NCBI GenBank assembly: GCA_045603045.1
Contig: JAZULJ010000018.1
Span: 1,067-65,066, forward strand
Direction: 5' to 3'
Length of the DNA stretch: 64,000 nucleotides
Origin: Alistipes sp.
GTDB lineage: Bacteria; Bacteroidota; Bacteroidia; Bacteroidales; Rikenellaceae
Shown here: positions 1 through 27,932 of the stretch, one piece after another
How positions within the stretch are numbered: the first letter of the stretch is position 1
How the letters are laid out: each line of letters begins with the position of its first letter
Program-made: the position numbers and the translations under genes
Notes under the pieces: generated by a model
Database searches by the model: none
Told to the model about the DNA's origin: nothing
The model's input: only the letters and a program-made list of their open reading frames with translations

Positions 1-1087
1 CGGTCCCCATCAACGACTCGTAGTCGAAGCGGTTTATATCCAAAACGCCCGCCTTGCGATCAAGGAATTTACCCACATCACACGAGAAGTACATCGCCGC
101 ATTATCCTTTATTGAGGCGATGGCCAAGGCTTTAACCTCGTCGATGGGAAGATTGAGGTAGAGCCAGTTATCACCATCATAGACGTGGCGGTCGTACTCA
201 ATCTCATAGACCTTGTGGTACTCGCGTGAGGGGTCGTTCATGACCATTACGAAGTCTTTTTCGAGGTCAAGGTCTCCGAAGTACTCCTTGTAGAATGACT
301 TGGGCGTATAACGCTTGGTCTCGACGATGTTACCATCCTTATCCTGGCGCGACCACTCGAACTCGGTGGGAGGCACACCAAAGCTACGGACAAGCATCGA
401 GTATATCTCGGTAAGCATCTCCTCTTTGAGGGCTGCGGGAGCGCGACGATCCCTCTGATTGCGCAGCTTCAAGCCATACTCACGAAGTTTGAGTTTCAGG
501 AGGTTAGATATCGCCGACGTGTTATTTGTCTGATAGTTCTCGGGCATGACCTCAGCGGGCACCACACCATACTTCATTACGAGATTCGAGACACCCGTAA
601 ACTGGCCGCCATCGTTGAGCGGATTCTTGAACAACCACTCTACCTGACGGTCGTCCATGGGCAGATGGCGCGTGTCTATTACGCCCTGCAAGAAGAGGTT
701 ACACTTCTCCAACTGGTCGTAGAAGAAGAGGTAGTTCTGCGAAAACTCCATAGCGGGAAGTCCCTGTTCCTCAATCATCTGTGCACGCAGCACATTGAGA
801 CCTGTAAAGAGCCAGCAACGTCCCGACTGCTGCTGATCGGTAATGCCCCATGTCTTCACACGGTGCGAGAAGTGAGTATCAATCATTGCGAGGTTATCGG
901 CATTTACGGCCAACTCCGCAATAGGGTTCACAGCCAAGGCATTGCGTGCTGCCTTCTCAGCCTGTGTGATGCTATAACCCGTGCGCATCTTCTGCATCAT
1001 CTCATCGGTGATGCCACCCTTATCCTGCTGTGCCGAGACGCCAGAAACAACGGCGAGGGCAAGCATGAGACTAAATAGTTTTTTCAT
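1..1087 (-). CDS. pepC: Aminopeptidase C (C1B/bleomycin hydrolase family cysteine peptidase), runs off the window start
   Basis: Not in the ORF track. Hand translation from ATG at 1087 gives a signal peptide (MKKLFSLMLALAVVSG) and the catalytic motif DQQQSGRCWLFTGLNVLR; the frame was open at both ends where translated. Confidence 0.9.
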   Translation of the reverse strand, partial: MKKLFSLMLALAVVSGVSAQQDKGGITDEMMQKMRTGYSITQAEKAARNALAVNPIAELAVNADNLAMIDTHFSHRVKTWGITDQQQSGRCWLFTGLNVLRAQMIEEQGLPAMEFSQNYLFFYDQLEKCNLFLQGVIDTRHLPMDDRQVEWLFKNPLNDGGQFTGVSNLVMKYGVVPAEVMPENYQTNNTSAISNLLKLKLREYGLKLRNQRDRRAPAALKEEMLTEIYSMLVRSFGVPPTEFEWSRQDKDGNIVETKRYTPKSFYKEYFGDLDLEKDFVMVMNDPSREYHKVYEIEYDRHVYDGDNWLYLNLPIDEVKALAIASIKDNAAMYFSCDVGKFLDRKAGVLDINRFDYESLMGT

Positions 1088-1125
1088 TTTGCAGTATGTT
1101 TAATCGTTAGTAATATATCGCTCTA

Positions 1126-1575
1126 TCAGAACCACTTATCGGCATAGAAGTAGAGTACCGCCCACATCACAAAGCGACCACCCTTACCCACGAGCATCCA
1201 TAGTGCCGAGGGCAGAAAGCGCGCCTTGAAGAAGCCGAGGACGATAGCAAAAACATCGCCTACAACAGGCAGCCACGTGAGCAGCGCAAGCCATGCGCCC
1301 CACCGCCCAACAGCGTTCTTATACTTATCGATAGTCTCGCGCTTGACCTTGAACCACCTTTCGAGCCACTCGGTCTTGCCGAGCCACCCTATCCAATAGG
1401 ATGTGAGGCCTCCGAGCCAGTTGCCAAGGGTTGCAACTATTATTGTGGTGGTTGCATTACCCCCAAGAGCCAACATACCTACAACAAGGACATCGGAGCT
1501 GAACGGCACCACCGTAGCCGCGAGAAACGACCCTATGAAGAGGCCTATATATCCATAGTCGAGGAGTGTTTCCAT
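1126..1575 (-). CDS. YqaA/DedA family membrane protein
   Basis: FLAATVVPFSSD, GNWLGGLTSYWIG and WLPVVGD motifs; start trimmed to METLL, just downstream of a TATCTTTG promoter element. Confidence 0.85.
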   Translation of the reverse strand: METLLDYGYIGLFIGSFLAATVVPFSSDVLVVGMLALGGNATTTIIVATLGNWLGGLTSYWIGWLGKTEWLERWFKVKRETIDKYKNAVGRWGAWLALLTWLPVVGDVFAIVLGFFKARFLPSALWMLVGKGGRFVMWAVLYFYADKWF

Positions 1576-20078: not shown

Positions 20079-21137
20079 TTAGAGTACGTCGGGCGCAGGA
20101 TGCTCTTTGAGTGCCATGCTACACATCTTGAAGAGGAGGCGCGCGGCAATAGCAGCATCTGTACGGTCATCCATATCGGGCACCACCTCCGTAAGGTCGA
20201 AGCCCACGATACGACGCCCCGAGGTCACAAGTTTACCAACGAGATAAACAACCTCCGGGAAGCGCAAGCCACCCGATACAAGCGTACCCGTATGGGGTGA
20301 GCACTCGATGGTCAGACCGTCGATATCGAGCGATACATATACCTTCTCAGGGAGTGTCTCAATAATCTCATCGCACAACGCAGCCCACGTCACGCCCTCG
20401 AACTTCTGCGACCACAGATACTGTCCCGTGAAGAGGTGTATGCGCTCATCGCTCTGGGCACGCTCCCACTCGCGGGGGCTGAACTCACGCACACCAACCG
20501 ACACAAGACGCTTCACCTGAGGCACGTCGCGCATGATGTTGTGCATCACCGAGGCATGCGAGAAGTCGAAGTTATAGTGTTGCTCGCGCAGGTCGCACTT
20601 CGAGTCTATATGCAAAATACCGACCTCGTTGTGCTTCTCGCCCACGGCCTTGACCAGACCATAGGCCACCGACTGTTCGCCACCGACCAGGCCCACAATC
20701 TTATCCCTGTCGAGCCAGCGCTTTGCCTGCTCATATATATTGTTATTAACCTCAGCCGAGCCCTCGTTGACCTTACGCAGACGGCGCGAGTGTAGCATAT
20801 TCTCTATCGACGATAGTCCCAGCTCATCGTGCATCTTCATAACGCGCTCAGCATCGGAGCGCAGACGGTGCGACAAATCCTGTATGCGATAATCGATAGG
20901 CGCCGTGGCGATACCCTTACGCCAGCTATATGGCGCCGAAGGCTCATAAAAGTCTATGAAGCGCGACGCCTCAATGATGGCGTCGGGGGCATACGAGCTG
21001 CCGGCACGTATCTGCACCGTAGCATCCCATGGAGCCGATATGAGCACCAGGGCTGCATCCTCGGCACTGAGTGGCATACCGAAATAATTGCCGTTATCGG
21101 GCACTACACCATTGGGGTCAAACTCTGTTGTATGCAT
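20079..21137 (-). CDS. Agmatinase/ureohydrolase family protein with both metal-binding histidines substituted
   Basis: PWDAT, GGEQS (canonical GGE/DHS), DSKCD (canonical DAHxD), SLDIDGL and GFDLTEV. Confidence 0.85.
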   Translation of the reverse strand: MHTTEFDPNGVVPDNGNYFGMPLSAEDAALVLISAPWDATVQIRAGSSYAPDAIIEASRFIDFYEPSAPYSWRKGIATAPIDYRIQDLSHRLRSDAERVMKMHDELGLSSIENMLHSRRLRKVNEGSAEVNNNIYEQAKRWLDRDKIVGLVGGEQSVAYGLVKAVGEKHNEVGILHIDSKCDLREQHYNFDFSHASVMHNIMRDVPQVKRLVSVGVREFSPREWERAQSDERIHLFTGQYLWSQKFEGVTWAALCDEIIETLPEKVYVSLDIDGLTIECSPHTGTLVSGGLRFPEVVYLVGKLVTSGRRIVGFDLTEVVPDMDDRTDAAIAARLLFKMCSMALKEHPAPDVL

Positions 21138-21243: not shown

Positions 21244-21431
21244 GGAGGCCCCGTAAATCAGGTCGAGTAGATTTTGAAATTTATTGCGAGAATATTTCTC
21301 GGCTCTCGGGAGCGCACAATGTAAGCATTGTAACCGGGCAATGGTGAGAAAAACTACAATAAGTTCAAAGGCGACCGAAACACAACCTCCCGAAGTAACG
21401 AATAATCTTTTACCAATTTATAGAACATCTC
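21244..21431 (+). repeat. ~190-bp structured intergenic element (family B, copy 1) in the apparent pdxB leader
   Basis: GGAGG...GGTCG...GGGAGCGCACAATG-TAAG-CATTGTAACC...CGACCGAAA...CCTCC...ATTTATAGAACATCTC; second copy at 37296-37487. Confidence 0.8.
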
Positions 21432-21454
21432 TAAATTCACACTCACCATACCTC

Positions 21455-22450
21455 ATGAAGATAATCATCGACAGCGCCATACCCTTCATCAAGGGTGTCT
21501 TAGAACCCTATGCCGAGGTCATATACTGCGCCGGCAGAGAGTTCAACGCAGAGAACGTAAGCGACTGCGATGCGATGATTGTGCGCACACGCACACGTTG
21601 CGACGAGGCACTGCTCGCCAACTCTCGCGTTAGATTCATCGCCACCGCAACCATCGGCACCGACCATATAGACCTCAACTGGTGCAAGGCCAACGGCATA
21701 AGCGTTGCGAGTGCTGCGGGATGCAACGCACGAGGCGTCTTGCAGTGGGTGGCAGCAGCCCTCAAAGAGATATGCTCCACCGACAACAAGCACCCCGAGC
21801 ACTACACTTTGGGCGTCGTTGGCGTTGGCAACGTAGGCTCACTTGTGGCGGAGTATGCCGAGCGTTGGGGTTTCAGCGTATTGAAGTGCGACCCGCCACG
21901 CCAGGAGCGCGAAGGTGGCGACTACGTCGATATCGACACCATCGTTCGCGAGTGCAACATCATAACACTCCACACCCCATTAGACACCACAACAAAACAC
22001 CTTATAAACGAGCGAAACATAGCCCTCATGCCCGCCGATGCGACCATTATCAACGCCTCACGAGGGGGCGTTGCCGATAATCGCGCGGTGCTGCATAGCG
22101 GCCATCGCTACATATTCGACGTATGGGAACAAGAGCCGAACCTCGATATCGACATTCTGGCTGCCGCAACCCTCGCCACACCCCACATTGCGGGCTACTC
22201 GCGACAGGGCAAGGCAAATGCTACTTCAATGGTCATAAGAGCCCTCGCCCACCACTTCTCACTACCGCTGACAGAGTGGTATCCCGAGGATATGAGCGAG
22301 TGTGAACCACGCGACATTTCGTGGTCGGAGATGTGCCACACAATAGACCAATACTTTCCGATAAAAGAACAGAGCAGAGAGCTCAAATCGGCACCCGAAA
22401 AGTTCGAGACACTGCGCAATGAATACCACTACCGCGAGGAGTATTTCTAA
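21455..22450 (+). CDS. pdxB: Erythronate-4-phosphate dehydrogenase
   Basis: MIVRTRT, ATATIGTDHID, GVVGVGNVG, INASRG and TPHIAGYS; start trimmed to MKIII. Confidence 0.9.
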   Translation: MKIIIDSAIPFIKGVLEPYAEVIYCAGREFNAENVSDCDAMIVRTRTRCDEALLANSRVRFIATATIGTDHIDLNWCKANGISVASAAGCNARGVLQWVAAALKEICSTDNKHPEHYTLGVVGVGNVGSLVAEYAERWGFSVLKCDPPRQEREGGDYVDIDTIVRECNIITLHTPLDTTTKHLINERNIALMPADATIINASRGGVADNRAVLHSGHRYIFDVWEQEPNLDIDILAAATLATPHIAGYSRQGKANATSMVIRALAHHFSLPLTEWYPEDMSECEPRDISWSEMCHTIDQYFPIKEQSRELKSAPEKFETLRNEYHYREEYF

Positions 22451-22563
22451 ACATCTCGCAGAGAATAGCCCCGAGAACTATATTTTAGCGTTTGTCGGGG
22501 CTTTTTATTTGGATAAAAAATTGCTCATTGCGGAATTATTTATATATTTGTATAATATTTACA

Positions 22564-23682
22564 ATGCGCAAAAATCGAATGAAACGCTCGATACTACAAT
22601 CGCTACTGAACATCTTACCCGCCGAGATGTCGCATAGGGTGCGCCTTAGGCTACTTGGCGGCGTATGCCACATACCCACGGCCAAGTGGTTTCTCGGCCG
22701 CACATTTGCACCACGCGATAAAACCCTCTCTCGCGAGGTCTTCGGCGTACACTTCGACAACCCGATAGGTGTCGCCGCAGGCTTCGACGCCAACGGCGAC
22801 TACATCGACGAGTTCTCGGCAATGGGCTTCGGCTTCGTGGAGATAGGCTCCATCATCGCCCACGCACAGCCTGGCACACCGCGCCCACGCCTCAGACGTC
22901 TGCGCTCAATGAATTCCCTGCTCGACAATTCAGGATACCCGAGCAAAGGGTTGGAGTATGCGCTAAATAACGTGCGACACCGCAACTCAAAGACTCAACG
23001 TATAACGATAGGTTGCAACATCGGCAAGTGCACAGCCACGCCCGCCGAACAGATTACGAAGGAGTATCTGCGCGTATTCCGCAACATGTACCAATATGTC
23101 GATTTCTTCGTCATCAACATATCGTGCAACACCTCCGTCAAGCCCTTTACGCTAAAAACGCGCGAGGAGATTTTGGAGATCATAGAGCCGCTCTTTGAGT
23201 TCCGCCGCGGACAGCTCGATTACCGCCCCATTCTTCTCAAAATATCGCCCGACCTCTCTCAGGAGCAACTCGACGAGATTATCAACATCCTCATAGAGAC
23301 CCCGCTGGATGGCATCGAGGCTGTTGCCGGCTCGTCCGATATAGCGCCCAACAGCGGAGGTATCATCAGCGGACAACTGCTCACCGAGCGCGCAATTGAC
23401 ATGGTGCGCTACATAACACAAAAGACAGAGGGCAACTACCCCATTATCGGCAGTGGCGGCATGATACAGCCCGAGGATGTGAGACGCATGTTTGAGGCGG
23501 GAGCATCGCTCGTGGCACTCAATACAGGACTGCGCCTCAATGGTTTTAAGTTGCTGAGAGAGTCGGCACAAGCTCTTGTCGCGAAGCCCGAGGAGGAGAC
23601 TCCCGAAGCCGAGAGCATAGCACCCACGGCACCACAAGAGCCACAAGAGCCGCAGCAACCACAAGAGTACCAACAAGAGTAA
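22564..23682 (+). CDS. Class 2 (quinone) dihydroorotate dehydrogenase-like protein with a degenerate active site
   Basis: NPIGVAAGFD, GFVEIG, NIGK, LKISPD and IIGSGG are recognisable, but several substrate- and FMN-binding residues are changed; low-complexity PQE tail. Confidence 0.75.
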   Translation: MRKNRMKRSILQSLLNILPAEMSHRVRLRLLGGVCHIPTAKWFLGRTFAPRDKTLSREVFGVHFDNPIGVAAGFDANGDYIDEFSAMGFGFVEIGSIIAHAQPGTPRPRLRRLRSMNSLLDNSGYPSKGLEYALNNVRHRNSKTQRITIGCNIGKCTATPAEQITKEYLRVFRNMYQYVDFFVINISCNTSVKPFTLKTREEILEIIEPLFEFRRGQLDYRPILLKISPDLSQEQLDEIINILIETPLDGIEAVAGSSDIAPNSGGIISGQLLTERAIDMVRYITQKTEGNYPIIGSGGMIQPEDVRRMFEAGASLVALNTGLRLNGFKLLRESAQALVAKPEEETPEAESIAPTAPQEPQEPQQPQEYQQE

Positions 23683-23694
23683 ATAGGCCAAACA

Positions 23695-24942
23695 ATGAAG
23701 GCGACGGTAATAACCATAGGCGACGAGATACTCATCGGCCAGATAGTCGATACCAACAGCGTTTCGATAGCACGCCACCTCAACACCATAGGCATCGCCA
23801 TTGCAGAGAAGCTATCCATCGGCGACGATGCTGAGCAGATAACCTCGACGCTGCGTCGTGCGATGGCAGGCAGCGAGGTTGTCATCATCACGGGAGGACT
23901 CGGTCCCACTAAAGATGACATCACGAAGCACACCTTGGCGCACCTCTTCAACTCGGAGTTGGAGTATAACGCCTCGGAGGGCGAACATGTGCGCACACTC
24001 TTGGCACGCCGCGGAATACCCTTCACCGAGCTCAACCGCGCACAGGCCATGCTCCCGAAGTGCTGTACCGTGCTACACAACGCCCACGGCACCGCTCCGG
24101 GCATGTGGTTCGAGGACGAGAAGGGATGTATCGTAGTCTCGCTGCCGGGCGTACCCTTCGAGATGGAGCACCTCATGGAGGATGAGGTTATACCTCGCCT
24201 TAAAAAACGCTTTGCGCTACACGCCATCGTCCACCGCACTATTATCACCCGCGGCATTCCCGAGTCGCTACTCGCCGAGCGCATAGCAGCGTGGGAGGAG
24301 GCCCTACCCAACTACATACACCTCGCCTACCTACCCGCACCTAACATCGTGCGCCTGCGTCTCTCGGCATACGACGTCGAGAAGGGGGCTGCAAATAGGG
24401 TCATAACGGAACAAATAGAGCAACTACACACAATCATAGGCGACAACATCGTCGGCATGGAGGATGCCTCTGTCGAGCAACTCGTGCACAACATCCTCAC
24501 GCAGCGCGGCCTACGCCTTGCCGTAGCGGAGAGCTGCACGGGAGGTACCATAGCCTCGAAGTTCACAGCACAGGCGGGAGCCTCGGCCTACTTTATGGCG
24601 GGCATCGTGGCATATAGCAATGAGGCCAAGCGCGACATCCTCGGCGTGAACATGGACCACATCATGCGCCACGGCGCCGTGAGCGAGGAAGTGGCTATAC
24701 AGATGGCCGAGGGAGCACGCCGCATATCGGGTGCCGACTACGCCATCGCCACAACGGGCATTGCCGGCCCCACAGGAGGAAGCACCGAGAAGCCCGTGGG
24801 CACAGTTTGGATGGCCATAGCCACGCCACACGGTTGCCGCGCTGTGATGCGCAACTCGGGCACCGACCGCTCACAGATAATATCACGCGCCTCAGCATAC
24901 GCTATCGAAATGTTGTACGAGGAGTTAAAAAAGAGAGCTTAG
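23695..24942 (+). CDS. cinA: CinA family protein (molybdopterin-binding-like domain + NMN deamidase PncC)
   Basis: IGDEILIGQIVDTNS, GGLGPTKDD, AESCTGG and TTGIAGPTGG. Confidence 0.95.
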   Translation: MKATVITIGDEILIGQIVDTNSVSIARHLNTIGIAIAEKLSIGDDAEQITSTLRRAMAGSEVVIITGGLGPTKDDITKHTLAHLFNSELEYNASEGEHVRTLLARRGIPFTELNRAQAMLPKCCTVLHNAHGTAPGMWFEDEKGCIVVSLPGVPFEMEHLMEDEVIPRLKKRFALHAIVHRTIITRGIPESLLAERIAAWEEALPNYIHLAYLPAPNIVRLRLSAYDVEKGAANRVITEQIEQLHTIIGDNIVGMEDASVEQLVHNILTQRGLRLAVAESCTGGTIASKFTAQAGASAYFMAGIVAYSNEAKRDILGVNMDHIMRHGAVSEEVAIQMAEGARRISGADYAIATTGIAGPTGGSTEKPVGTVWMAIATPHGCRAVMRNSGTDRSQIISRASAYAIEMLYEELKKRA

Positions 24943-24977: not shown

Positions 24978-26153
24978 ATGATTCGCTCAATCTTAGACAC
25001 CGACCTCTATAAGTTTACCACGTCGTACGCCTACTTCAAGCTCTACCCGCAAGCCATTGGCACCTTCACATTCAATGACCGCGCTAAGACGGTATTCGAC
25101 GACGACTTCTTGGAGGACCTCAAAGCAGAATTCAAGGCGTTGGAGCGCATATCGCTCTCGCAGGACGAGTTTTGCTACATGAACAATCACTGCAAGTATA
25201 TCCCTCAGAACTACTTCGAGTGGCTCTTAGGCTTCCGTTTCGACGCCTCGAAGATTAACGTATGGCTCGATGAGGAGAACCACTTGCAGATAAATGTTAC
25301 GGACTTCATGTATAAGGTTACACTCTACGAGATACCTATTCTGGCCACCGTATCGGAGTTGTTCCACCTGCGCAATAGCTACGACGCCGAGGCTATGATT
25401 GCACGCCTCGAAGAGAAGGAGCAGATAGCGCGCGATAATGGACTCCTATTCTCGGACTTCGGCACACGCCGCCGCTTCTCGTACGATGTGCAGCGCATGG
25501 TCGTCAAGCACCTCAAAAATAACCCGTGTGGCTGTACCGGAACATCAAACTGCCACCTCGCCATGGAGCTCGATATGAAGATGATAGGAACCTACCCCCA
25601 CGAGCTTCCGATGTTTATCGCCGCAGTGAATGGTGGTCCACGTAATGCCAACTACCTCACCATGGAGGACTGGGTAAAGGTCTATGATGGCTACCTCGGC
25701 ACGGCACTCACTGATAGCTTCGGCTCGGAGGTCTTCTTCAACAACTTCTCGAAGAAGCACGCCTGTCTCTTCGATGGTGTGCGCCAGGACTCGGGCGACC
25801 CCATCGCCTTTATTGACATGGCCATCAATCGCTATAAGGAGTTAGGTATCGACCCCATGACCAAGAGCATCGTGTTCAGCGATGCACTGAACTTCGAGAA
25901 GGCCGTGCAGATTAAGAAGGCTTGCGAGGGACGCATCAAATGTATGTTCGGCATCGGTACCAACCTTACGTGCGACACGGGCCATGCGTCGTGCAATATC
26001 GTCATGAAGCTATCGAGCTGCCAGATAAACTCACGTAAGCCCAGGGAGTTGTGCGTCAAACTCTCGGATGTCGAGGGCAAGGAGATGGGCGACCCCGAAG
26101 AGATAAAGCTCTATCGCGCCCTACTTCGCAACCACACCCAGAAGAGCGAATAA
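24978..26153 (+). CDS. pncB: Nicotinate phosphoribosyltransferase
   Basis: LDTDLYK, DFGTRRR, GTYPHE, RQDSGDP, FSDAL and FGIGTNL. Confidence 0.95.
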   Translation: MIRSILDTDLYKFTTSYAYFKLYPQAIGTFTFNDRAKTVFDDDFLEDLKAEFKALERISLSQDEFCYMNNHCKYIPQNYFEWLLGFRFDASKINVWLDEENHLQINVTDFMYKVTLYEIPILATVSELFHLRNSYDAEAMIARLEEKEQIARDNGLLFSDFGTRRRFSYDVQRMVVKHLKNNPCGCTGTSNCHLAMELDMKMIGTYPHELPMFIAAVNGGPRNANYLTMEDWVKVYDGYLGTALTDSFGSEVFFNNFSKKHACLFDGVRQDSGDPIAFIDMAINRYKELGIDPMTKSIVFSDALNFEKAVQIKKACEGRIKCMFGIGTNLTCDTGHASCNIVMKLSSCQINSRKPRELCVKLSDVEGKEMGDPEEIKLYRALLRNHTQKSE

Positions 26154-26441: not shown

Positions 26442-27932
26442 CTACTCGTTATACTCGATAGCCTTTGTCGAGTTGATGGGGCAGAGGATGGTGTTCACAA
26501 CCTCGTACTTATTATCGAACTGCGAGTTAGGCGCTGCAATAATCACGAGCACGCTAAGCTCCGACTTTTTGTAGTTTGCAGCGATGGGGATCGATACCTT
26601 GAAGTCAGCAGTCTTGCCCTCCTCGATGGTGCCGAGGTCGTCACCTGTGATATCCATAATCTGCTCATCGACGCCTGTCATTTCTCGCAAGCAGTGGTTG
26701 TGATAGTTATGCCAATCCTCCCATGCACCCAGCTGTGCACCGTAGATATTGCTTTCGAGAAGCCAGCAAGAGATGCGATAGGACTGTGTAACACCTGACT
26801 TTACGATAGCCTCGACATCTACCGACGAGCCATTTATCTTGGTCGTAACACCGGCACTTGCCTGCGCAGTCTTCTTCCATGTGTAGGCGATATGTGTTTT
26901 GAGGTTATCGACACTTGCACCAGCAATCTTGGCGTACTGATAGTTAAATGTTGCCCCAGGGAAGCCGCGCACGCTGCGCACGAAGCCGAAGATGGCGGCA
27001 GCATCCGACTTTGCGGGGTCGCCATTTGCCAAACCACTATAATGAGCCTCAACAAGGTTGTAGCGATCGGCATAGTTGGTTGCAGCCAACTCCTTGAGGG
27101 CGTTCATCATCGAGGGACAGTTTCCACATAGTGTACCTGTATGCTCCACTAAGAGCACGCGGTTTTTGAAGTTGGTATTCTCGGGGTCGGGGTCGAGGGT
27201 GCTATCATCATTACCACCTGTGTTACCACCGCCATTCTCCACAACTGTAACAGAAATCTGCTCCGACGCGGTGTTATAGTACTTGACATAGAAGGTCATC
27301 TCGCCTGCTACCTCGGGAGTGTAGGGGTTCTCGATGCTCTGGTCGTCTGCGTAGATGGTGTATCCCTCAGTGAGGGTCTCAGCGCCAGCCTTAACCTCAA
27401 AGGTAATGGCACTTCCGAGCGTTATCTCCTCGGCTGCTGTGAGCGTAATGGGGAGCTTCGCAGCCTCCACTTCGATAGCCTTCGATACACATACCGTCTC
27501 GCCATCGATGGCCGTGAGTACAACCTTGGCGTTCAGCGTGTCGCTATACACATCCTCGATAAGTGCCTCGGCCGATGCCGTAAGGGTTATGGCACCCGCA
27601 TTGGCTGTGCACGATGCTATTGCGAGGTCGCTGCTCTGACTGCCGTTGAGCAGCTGTAACGACAACATCGTCTCGCAGGCGGCAGCTACCCGGGGTGCAA
27701 CGTCTGCGGGGGTGATGTCAAATGTGAGGGCGATACTCGCCGTAGAGAGCATTTCGTCGGTGTAGCCGATAGCCACCTTATCGCTATCGGCAGCGTAGTC
27801 GATAGCTACCAAACCAATAGTCTCCTCAGGATTAGGGTCGCCGCTGGGCTGCTGGCCGGGTGTAGGCTCCTCGTTACAGCCGACAGCCAAAAGCATGACT
27901 GCGGCAAAGAGATAAGAGATAAAATTTTTCAT
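26442..27932 (-). CDS. Omp28-related outer-membrane lipoprotein with a C-terminal thioredoxin-like CxxC domain
   Basis: Lipobox AVG-C, VLLVEHTGTLCGNCP, GFP and HNHCLR motifs. Confidence 0.85.
   Translation of the reverse strand: MKNFISYLFAAVMLLAVGCNEEPTPGQQPSGDPNPEETIGLVAIDYAADSDKVAIGYTDEMLSTASIALTFDITPADVAPRVAAACETMLSLQLLNGSQSSDLAIASCTANAGAITLTASAEALIEDVYSDTLNAKVVLTAIDGETVCVSKAIEVEAAKLPITLTAAEEITLGSAITFEVKAGAETLTEGYTIYADDQSIENPYTPEVAGEMTFYVKYYNTASEQISVTVVENGGGNTGGNDDSTLDPDPENTNFKNRVLLVEHTGTLCGNCPSMMNALKELAATNYADRYNLVEAHYSGLANGDPAKSDAAAIFGFVRSVRGFPGATFNYQYAKIAGASVDNLKTHIAYTWKKTAQASAGVTTKINGSSVDVEAIVKSGVTQSYRISCWLLESNIYGAQLGAWEDWHNYHNHCLREMTGVDEQIMDITGDDLGTIEEGKTADFKVSIPIAANYKKSELSVLVIIAAPNSQFDNKYEVVNTILCPINSTKAIEYNE

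Follow-up and report, generated by a model that had tools for sequence, protein, structure and literature searches.

A degenerate class-2 dihydroorotate dehydrogenase homologue of Alistipes, retained under selection beside a class 1B enzyme and likely no longer a dihydroorotate dehydrogenase

Replacement of one class of dihydroorotate dehydrogenase (DHODH) by another, DHODH look-alikes with a different substrate, and pseudoenzymes are all known already. In yeast, a horizontally acquired class 1A DHODH took the place of the mitochondrial class 2 enzyme (for background, see PMC8520639 and PMC10395836), fungal class-1A-like proteins named DHODH are dihydrouracil oxidases that do not complement pyrimidine auxotrophy (PMC10395836), and Cys-type class II DHODHs of anaerobic fungi are functional (PMC8520639). 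A literature search for DHODH-like paralogues in Alistipes or Bacteroidales found nothing. Here we analyse a class-2 DHODH-like gene, called X throughout, at positions 22564-23682 (+) of a 64,000-nucleotide stretch of Alistipes sp. DNA (assembly GCA_045603045.1, contig JAZULJ010000018.1, positions 1,067 to 65,066 of the forward strand; this whole stretch is referred to as the window). In this lineage, the class 2 enzyme was displaced by a class 1B DHODH and lost the DHODH signature, and X has been retained under selection. It is likely that X is a relic of the displaced DHODH that no longer functions as one and has become a repurposed flavoprotein or a pseudoenzyme.

A search of the assembly (1.73 Mb, 92% complete) for DHO_dh domains detected three genes: X, a class 1B PyrD (NF005574, 433 bits), and a PRK07565 'DHOD-like' protein. 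On the flanks of the class 1B PyrD are the end of CarB, PyrF, and a PyrK-like electron-transfer subunit that scores 210-257 bits against its best models, slightly below the cut-offs; PyrE and PyrB come directly downstream. This carB-pyrK-pyrD-pyrF-pyrE-pyrB cluster lies at approximately 75.7-80.4 kb of contig C12 of the same assembly, outside the window. Hence, X is not the sole pyrD of its genome. The first-pass annotation, made from the sequence of the window, held that X is not a DHODH but either a pseudoenzyme or a repurposed flavoprotein; this claim gains support from the canonical class 1B pyrK-pyrD pair inside the pyr cluster, from the purifying selection on X and, across the genus, from the confinement of the altered class-2 site to class 1B genomes, with two low-completeness exceptions.

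The gene order of the class 1B cluster resembles that of Firmicutes pyr operons. The encoded PyrD is 90-99% identical within the clade of the window, 79-80% identical to that of one sister genus, 65-70% to that of one other family, and 53% at most to those of the remaining order, values that suggest a distinct, possibly transferred lineage of class 1B PyrD in the genus.

To compare active sites, X was aligned to Escherichia coli PyrD taken from NC_000913.3, and the E. coli numbering is used for the reference positions. Following the UniProt/HAMAP annotation, we take the flavin mononucleotide (FMN) contacts of the E. coli enzyme to be AAG, Thr86, Asn139, Asn172, Lys217, Thr245, Gly268, Gly297, and Tyr318-Ser319, and the orotate set to be Asn111-x-x-Gly-Phe115, Asn172, Asn177, and Asn246-Thr247; Lys66 contacts both FMN and the orotate carboxylate. 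In the alignment, Lys66 corresponds to Ala76 of X (GFDANG; codon at 22789..22791, +), and this position is occupied by Pro or Ala across the whole clade of window-type genes. The substrate loop NRMGFNN (E. coli N111-R-M-G-F115-N-N) is replaced with D121-N-S-G-Y-P-S127 (22924..22944, +). The catalytic loop, N185-I-S-C188-N-T190 (23116..23133, +), reads NISCNTS (residues 185-191) compared to N172-I-S-S175-P-N177-T in E. coli: it is one residue shorter, lacks the Pro, and contains a Cys. This shortening displaces the register of the Asn that follows Cys188 relative to the pattern N-x-S-[SC]-P-N-T; Asn189 may be the equivalent of Asn177 when a gap of one residue is placed in the loop. In place of E. 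coli I243-A-T-N246-T-T, X contains E252-A-V-A-G-S257 (23317..23334, +), with Asn246 changed to Ala255, Thr247 to Gly256, and Thr245 to Val254, and with a new, conserved acidic residue, Glu252. Finally, Tyr318 is Asn320 in X.

Other parts of the site are retained or conservatively changed, namely, the AAGFD strand, Ser96 (Thr86), Asn152 (Asn139), Asn185 (Asn172), the flavin contact Lys226 (Lys217; in KISPDL, codon at 23239..23241, +), NIGK, G..SG (266-270) with Gly270, and GSGG (296-299) with Gly299; Thr321 is either kept or a conservative change. From the orotate set given above, only Asn185 (Asn172) is clearly retained, with Asn111, Phe115, Asn246, and Thr247 changed to Asp121, Tyr125, Ala255, and Gly256, respectively. 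The motifs GFDAN, DNSGYPS, NISCNTS, and EAVAGS reported in the first-pass annotation are thus all present in X, and the FMN-contacting Lys that it described as missing is indeed replaced, by Ala76. Its statement that most of the orotate-binding Asn residues are gone went too far: Asn111 and Asn246 are replaced with Asp and Ala, but Asn139 and Asn172 are kept as Asn152 and Asn185, and Asn177 perhaps as Asn189.

The altered motifs are not peculiar to a single sequence and are conserved in about 115 homologues (60-79% identity). None of these 115 sequences departs from N185 or C188, and at least 90% have N189; the remodelled pocket ranks among the best-conserved parts, with GFD.NGD, DNSGYPS.G, GCNIG, N..CNT, KISPDL, LIETPLDGIEAVAGS, IIGSGG, and GASLVALN.G. 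The presence of Cys188 is not anomalous because canonical relatives in the order read NVSCPN.

A profile of the window type was run against 101 species genomes of the genus, and the motifs were read in about 50 loci. The window type proper, with scores of 578-665 bits, was found in 18 genomes; a broad set of matches scored 300-426 bits, and four genomes had no match. The class-2 open reading frame (ORF) is intact in 97 of the 101 genomes; stop flags in the profile matches were located at the match ends, and the extracted ORFs are single full-length frames. Class 1B PyrD was detected in 93 of the 101 genomes (72-99% identity). Among the eight genomes without it, six are exactly those with a canonical class-2 site (GFDKNA, NRMGFNN, NVSCPN, ATNTT, and GGLSG), and the remaining two have a completeness of just 68% and 71%. 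The 43 degenerate class-2 genes read in the genus all come from class 1B genomes, except for two from these same incomplete genomes. Several degenerate types, named after their loop motifs, can be distinguished beside that of the window: the Y type, which combines NVSYNT and ATNAT; the CDN type, which has NISCDN, ATNGT, and K66R; and NIC[LC]NT with ACGGT; further loop states include HIGGDC, NLCGDD, NVGGDS, and others. Across the subclades of the genus, the position of the catalytic base is occupied by Cys, Tyr, Leu, Gly, Ser, Asp, or His.

Within the family, sampled with 60 genomes from 31 genera, class 1B matches were confined to this genus and to one other, which has no class-2 gene. The other 29 genera have a class-2 gene and no class 1B match; the site is canonical in all 11 loci read, and in the genomes checked, the class-2 gene is the sole strong DHO_dh match. 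For the order, represented by 401 genomes, the lists of class 2 and class 1B matches were compared by eye, yielding 143 genomes with class 2 only, 224 with class 1B only, and seven with both. Six of these seven were read: the genome of the window, four genomes with a second degenerate type, and one with a canonical class-2 site. The second degenerate type (hereafter type II) comes from four other families and, by motif reading, is encoded at positions 498-1502 (-) of locus L096, 501-1505 (+) of L098, 501-1508 (+) of L099, and 393-1388 (-) of L100. It reads ISRTGFNN, NINKD, NWGSI, KLPADI, and ATGPT, where NWGSI amounts to a five-residue deletion of the catalytic loop; it always occurs alongside a class 1B PyrD and scores 334-358 bits against NF003652. 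By comparison, where a class-2 gene is the only DHODH of a genome, changes of the kind seen in X never appear (35-plus loci read). In genus, family, and order alike, class 2 and class 1B have complementary distributions.

Reading of these loci also revealed that the catalytic base of canonical class-2 PyrD in the order is nearly always Cys (NVSCPN) rather than the textbook Ser, with few instances of SSPNT (loci L005-L015 and L017-L045). In several genomes, such a Cys-base PyrD is the sole strong DHO_dh match, which parallels the Cys-type class II DHODHs of anaerobic fungi (PMC8520639).

In the maximum-likelihood tree, the 43 degenerate genes of the genus form one clade (Shimodaira-Hasegawa-like approximate likelihood ratio test [SH-aLRT] support of 100, stem 0.27), with the six canonical genes of the genus as its sister group. 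The stem of the window clade measures 0.66 substitutions per site, as does that of the NIC[LC]NT type. Type II genes form a separate clade, far from that of the genus (stem 0.77, SH-aLRT 100). X sequences of the clade share about 65% identity with one another and about 45% with the other genus types, compared to about 74% and 68% for CinA, the product of the downstream neighbour; judging from these sequences, the change in X is concentrated on the stem branches, where it was much faster than in the neighbouring genes. Origin of X as a xenologue from another group can be rejected because the window clade is nested in the genus clade beside the canonical sisters.

Ratios of nonsynonymous to synonymous substitutions (dN/dS) were estimated by the pairwise Nei-Gojobori method for the least-diverged pairs of three subclades and are rough figures, given the high dS (0.5-1.8). 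For the window type, dN/dS is 0.09-0.21 for X and 0.11-0.23 for cinA and pdxB; the respective values are 0.05-0.11 and 0.06-0.13 for the Y type, and 0.18-0.28 and 0.18-0.32 for the CDN type. X is thus indistinguishable from cinA and pdxB in the same genome pairs, which argues that it is a maintained protein under purifying selection. Neutral decay of X as a pseudogene is likewise rejected, with the ORF intact in nearly all genomes of the genus and dN/dS as low as in both neighbours.

The overall fold of X appears to be preserved. X scores 175 bits against Pfam DHO_dh, 285 bits against NF003652 (cut-off 267), and 228 bits against TIGR01036 (cut-off 200). The degenerate types of the genus score 285-401 bits against NF003652, all passing, compared to 466 bits for a canonical genus relative. 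The closest solved structures are class-2 DHODHs of Mycobacterium tuberculosis, Acinetobacter baumannii, E. coli, and human (E-values 1e-48 to 1e-40), and sequence identity to class-2 DHODHs is 28-45%. An AlphaFold2 (AF2) model of X, with a mean predicted local distance difference test score (pLDDT) of 75.7, shows N-terminal helices at residues 10-48 followed by a barrel, and all the top Foldseek matches of the model are class-2 DHODHs, with template modelling scores of 0.76-0.84 to the E. coli, human, and M. tuberculosis enzymes. X is therefore predicted to retain the DHODH-type triosephosphate isomerase (TIM) barrel together with the N-terminal helical domain. Confidence of the model is low at residues 105-124, 190-193, and 344-372, which are the odd stretches of X, so that pocket geometry is not derivable from it. 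Databases name the family of X quinone-dependent DHODH; the name dihydroorotate dehydrogenase is almost certainly wrong for X.

These observations fit the following scenario. The original class 2 DHODH of the lineage, a membrane-associated, quinone-type enzyme, would be the ancestor of X. In an ancestor within the genus, a cytoplasmic class 1B PyrK-PyrD would have taken over dihydroorotate oxidation, while the old gene would have stayed in its pdxB-pyrD-cinA slot and shed the orotate-holding residues, with Lys66 changing to Ala or Pro, Asn111 to Asp, Phe115 to Tyr, and Asn246-Thr247 to Ala-Gly, and with the loop Pro deleted. Change on the branch to the window clade would have been very fast, followed by constancy under purifying selection. 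X would no longer oxidise dihydroorotate and probably still binds FMN, given that Asn152, Asn185, Lys226, G..SG, and GSGG are kept; it would now perform some other task, either a new redox reaction or a non-catalytic role.

Loss of menaquinone synthesis appears to be connected with the later part of this history. No match to MenA, MenB, or cytochrome bd was found in the assembly, which is 92% complete, and NqrB is present above the cut-off. When broken down by class-2 type, MenA was detected in none of the 18 window-type genomes, none of the seven NIC[LC]NT-type genomes, one of the eight Y-type genomes, all 11 CDN-type genomes, and all six canonical genomes, in one of these as fragments below the cut-off only. 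The two most derived types, those of the window and of NIC[LC]NT, therefore coincide with the loss of menaquinone synthesis, which looks like, at most, a second step after the class 1B takeover. Menaquinone loss as the sole cause of the change in X is rejected: the CDN type has an altered site yet retains MenA, and the genome of the window encodes NqrB. The organism may depend on scavenged quinone, the use of which is possible because NQR is still present.

Several observations weigh against the view that X is a displaced DHODH that has ceased to act as one. The link between class 1B and degeneration comes down to two independent evolutionary events only, and one genome of the order (G260) carries both class 1B and a canonical class-2 site. 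Two equivalog DHODH models, NF003652 and TIGR01036, match X above their curated cut-offs. X also retains the flavin-binding Lys, two of the four Asn residues that bind the pyrimidine, and a Cys in the place of the catalytic base, and the changes of Thr245 to Val and Tyr318 to Asn affect flavin contacts. Furthermore, G549, which belongs to the genus, and the genomes of a sister genus (g28; G027, G052, and G419), all 99-100% complete, have class 1B and no class-2 gene; the function of X is dispensable in some lineages, as its loss in G549 and in this whole genus indicates.

With respect to what a displaced X would do, we consider a flavin oxidoreductase with a new substrate to be a reading with somewhat less than an even chance. 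The near invariance of Cys188-Asn189-Thr190 in the window type leans toward an enzyme, as does the gain of the acidic residues Asp121 and Glu252 along with the loss of the Lys, changes by which the anion-binding pocket would become more acidic. What leans toward a pseudoenzyme is that the base position varies freely from one subclade to another; in a protein of this kind, the barrel would serve a binding, scaffolding, membrane, or regulatory job, and the pocket would be conserved for folding or for the cofactor. We regard a true pseudoenzyme as a rather unlikely, tentative alternative. It would explain why the base position is highly variable across the genus and yet dN/dS is low in each subclade; in the same vein, the type II clade of other families has deleted the entire catalytic loop (NWGSI), and the gene can be lost. 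It fits poorly with the near invariance, in the 115 window-type sequences, of Cys188-Asn189-Thr190, Asp121, Tyr125, Glu252, and AVAGS, which resembles a defined ligand pocket, and the inherited genomic context suggests no partner. The rest of the probability goes to other or residual roles. It is also conceivable, although we would not expect it, that the class-2 scaffold has a second, non-dihydroorotate job, such as flavin- or quinone-linked redox or a membrane function, which was preserved after the handover to class 1B. As part of that conjecture, the second job would have been uncovered at least twice in the order, in the Alistipes-type clade and in the NWGSI/ATGPT clade, and the substrates of the subclades may differ.

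We find it improbable that X is a still working DHODH, that is, a second isozyme that would use scavenged quinone or another acceptor, rely on Cys188 as the base, and hold orotate in an altered manner. X has lost the loop Pro and carries other residues in place of Asn111, Asn246, and Thr247; the equivalent of Lys66 is Ala or Pro, and a K45A substitution at the same position abolished complementation by a class 1A DHODH (PMC10395836). The absence of such changes from the sole-DHODH genes described above and the occurrence of Tyr, Gly, Leu, or Asp instead of the base in sister subclades point in the same direction, as do the missing MenA and MenB in this genome and the missing MenA in all 18 window-type genomes. 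What an isozyme has in its favour is passage of both equivalog cut-offs, the kept Cys188, Asn152, Asn185, and Lys226, the use of Cys by canonical relatives in the order and by working class II DHODHs of anaerobic fungi (PMC8520639), and NqrB, with which quinone use would be possible.

The genes around X offer little guidance to its function. Upstream, an ORF at 21284..22450 (+) encodes a PdxB-like 2-hydroxyacid dehydrogenase (NF001309, 337 bits, below the cut-off of 434), in which the family match begins only at residue 58. Downstream are cinA, of the CinA/PncC family (23695..24942, +; NF001813, 391 bits, cut-off 379), and pncB, encoding nicotinate phosphoribosyltransferase (24978..26153, +; TIGR01514, 399 bits). 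In the flanks read, cinA adjoins the class-2 gene in 29 of 29 loci of the genus, seven of 11 loci of other genera in the family, and three of 29 loci of other families, and the order pdxB-pyrD-cinA also surrounds the canonical, sole-copy class-2 pyrD of other genera in the family. Most likely, therefore, the pdxB-X-cinA context predates the change of the active site and was inherited from an ordinary pyrD. The first-pass annotation had taken the vitamin B6 and NAD-salvage neighbours as a hint to the substrate, which does not hold, because the same synteny around canonical pyrD deprives the neighbours of any force as an argument for a pyridine or B6 substrate; assignment of a function to X from these neighbours is rejected accordingly. 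It is very improbable that X is a repurposed flavoprotein that works with pdxB, cinA, and pncB on a pyridine, B6, or NAD-salvage substrate: this reading draws on the position of X between pdxB and cinA-pncB, 12 nucleotides from cinA, whereas pyrD-cinA adjacency recurs in other families and the flanks read around related loci showed no pncB.

The ORF of X at 22564-23682 (+) comprises 372 codons without an internal stop. As previously noted, it is full length and lies 12 base pairs upstream of cinA, with the stop of X at 23682 and the ATG of cinA at 23695. The longest frame opens at TTG 22492, a second in-frame start (ATG) lies at 22564, and Met6 (ATG 22579) is the start conserved in at least 98% of the 115 homologues; most likely, then, the true gene spans 22579..23682 (+). 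In the AT-rich spacer 3' of pdxB, reading of the sequence reveals TATATTTG at 22543..22550 (+), which fits the Bacteroidetes -7 promoter consensus, TAnnTTTG, and can be considered only a candidate -7 element. The C-terminal (PQE)n tail is encoded by 9-bp repeats, as had been proposed: Tandem Repeats Finder identified four copies with a period of 9 and the consensus CCACAAGAG at 23632..23667 (+). The mean conservation of the tail is 0.31 compared to 0.83 for the barrel across the 115 homologues, with a different tail or none in other homologues, and residues 344-372 have pLDDT below 50 in the AF2 model, where the tail is predicted to be disordered.

Farther upstream, an agmatinase-family ORF at 20079-21137 (-) scores below all equivalog cut-offs (130 bits against TIGR01230, cut-off 174), and the larger genus genomes share the order nhaA-agmatinase-like-pdxB-X-cinA. 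On the other side, the region 26442-27932 (-) encodes a 496-amino acid protein with an Omp28-family C-terminal half (Pfam, 68 bits) and about 250 N-terminal residues without an assigned family.

In the genomes of Alistipes-type bacteria, which are abundant gut inhabitants, a quinone-dependent DHODH is routinely annotated. Metabolic models built on this name are probably wrong for X. DHODH/teriflunomide homologues have been reported mainly in Bacteroidetes (PMC13346816), and such lists of bacterial homologues of human drug targets are probably affected by the misnaming as well. More generally, the genus presents a natural experiment in enzyme displacement, in which the loser was not deleted and would instead have been altered in bursts before being preserved by selection. 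The active-site solutions differ among subclades, and other families supply an independent, parallel case. The genus could provide a tractable route to the origin of a new function, or of a pseudoenzyme, from a core metabolic flavoenzyme.

Among the known systems, X is closest to class 2 PyrD (EC 1.3.5.2; HAMAP MF_00225; E. coli 1F76, M. tuberculosis 8OFW, and human DHODH), with which it shares the TIM barrel, the N-terminal two-helix domain, the motifs AAGFD, NIGK, KISPDL, GSGG, and G..SG, and the ancestral genomic slot. It differs from these enzymes in the replacement of Lys66, Asn111, Phe115, Asn246, and Thr247, the shortened loop, and Asn in place of Tyr318; moreover, X is not the DHODH of its genome, and its evolution along the stem appears to have been much faster than that of its neighbours. 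The fungal dihydrouracil oxidases, like X, are DHODH homologues annotated as DHODH and set a precedent for repurposing of the fold (PMC10395836); however, they belong to class 1A and have an intact SCPNV motif, whereas X belongs to class 2 and has a remodelled SCNTS loop and pocket, so that X is not one of them. SjUra9, ArUra9, and DbUra9 of anaerobic fungi have Cys for the class-2 Ser base, as do the canonical relatives of X, but these are active DHODHs in which the other substrate residues are intact, unlike those of X (PMC8520639). Finally, the case of URA1 and URA9 in yeast resembles that of X in that one DHODH class replaces another, the lifestyle is anaerobic, and some lineages retain both genes (PMC8520639, PMC10395836). 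The class 2 enzyme retained in yeasts such as Lachancea kluyveri continues to be a DHODH, whereas X has lost the DHODH signature and yet is kept under selection.

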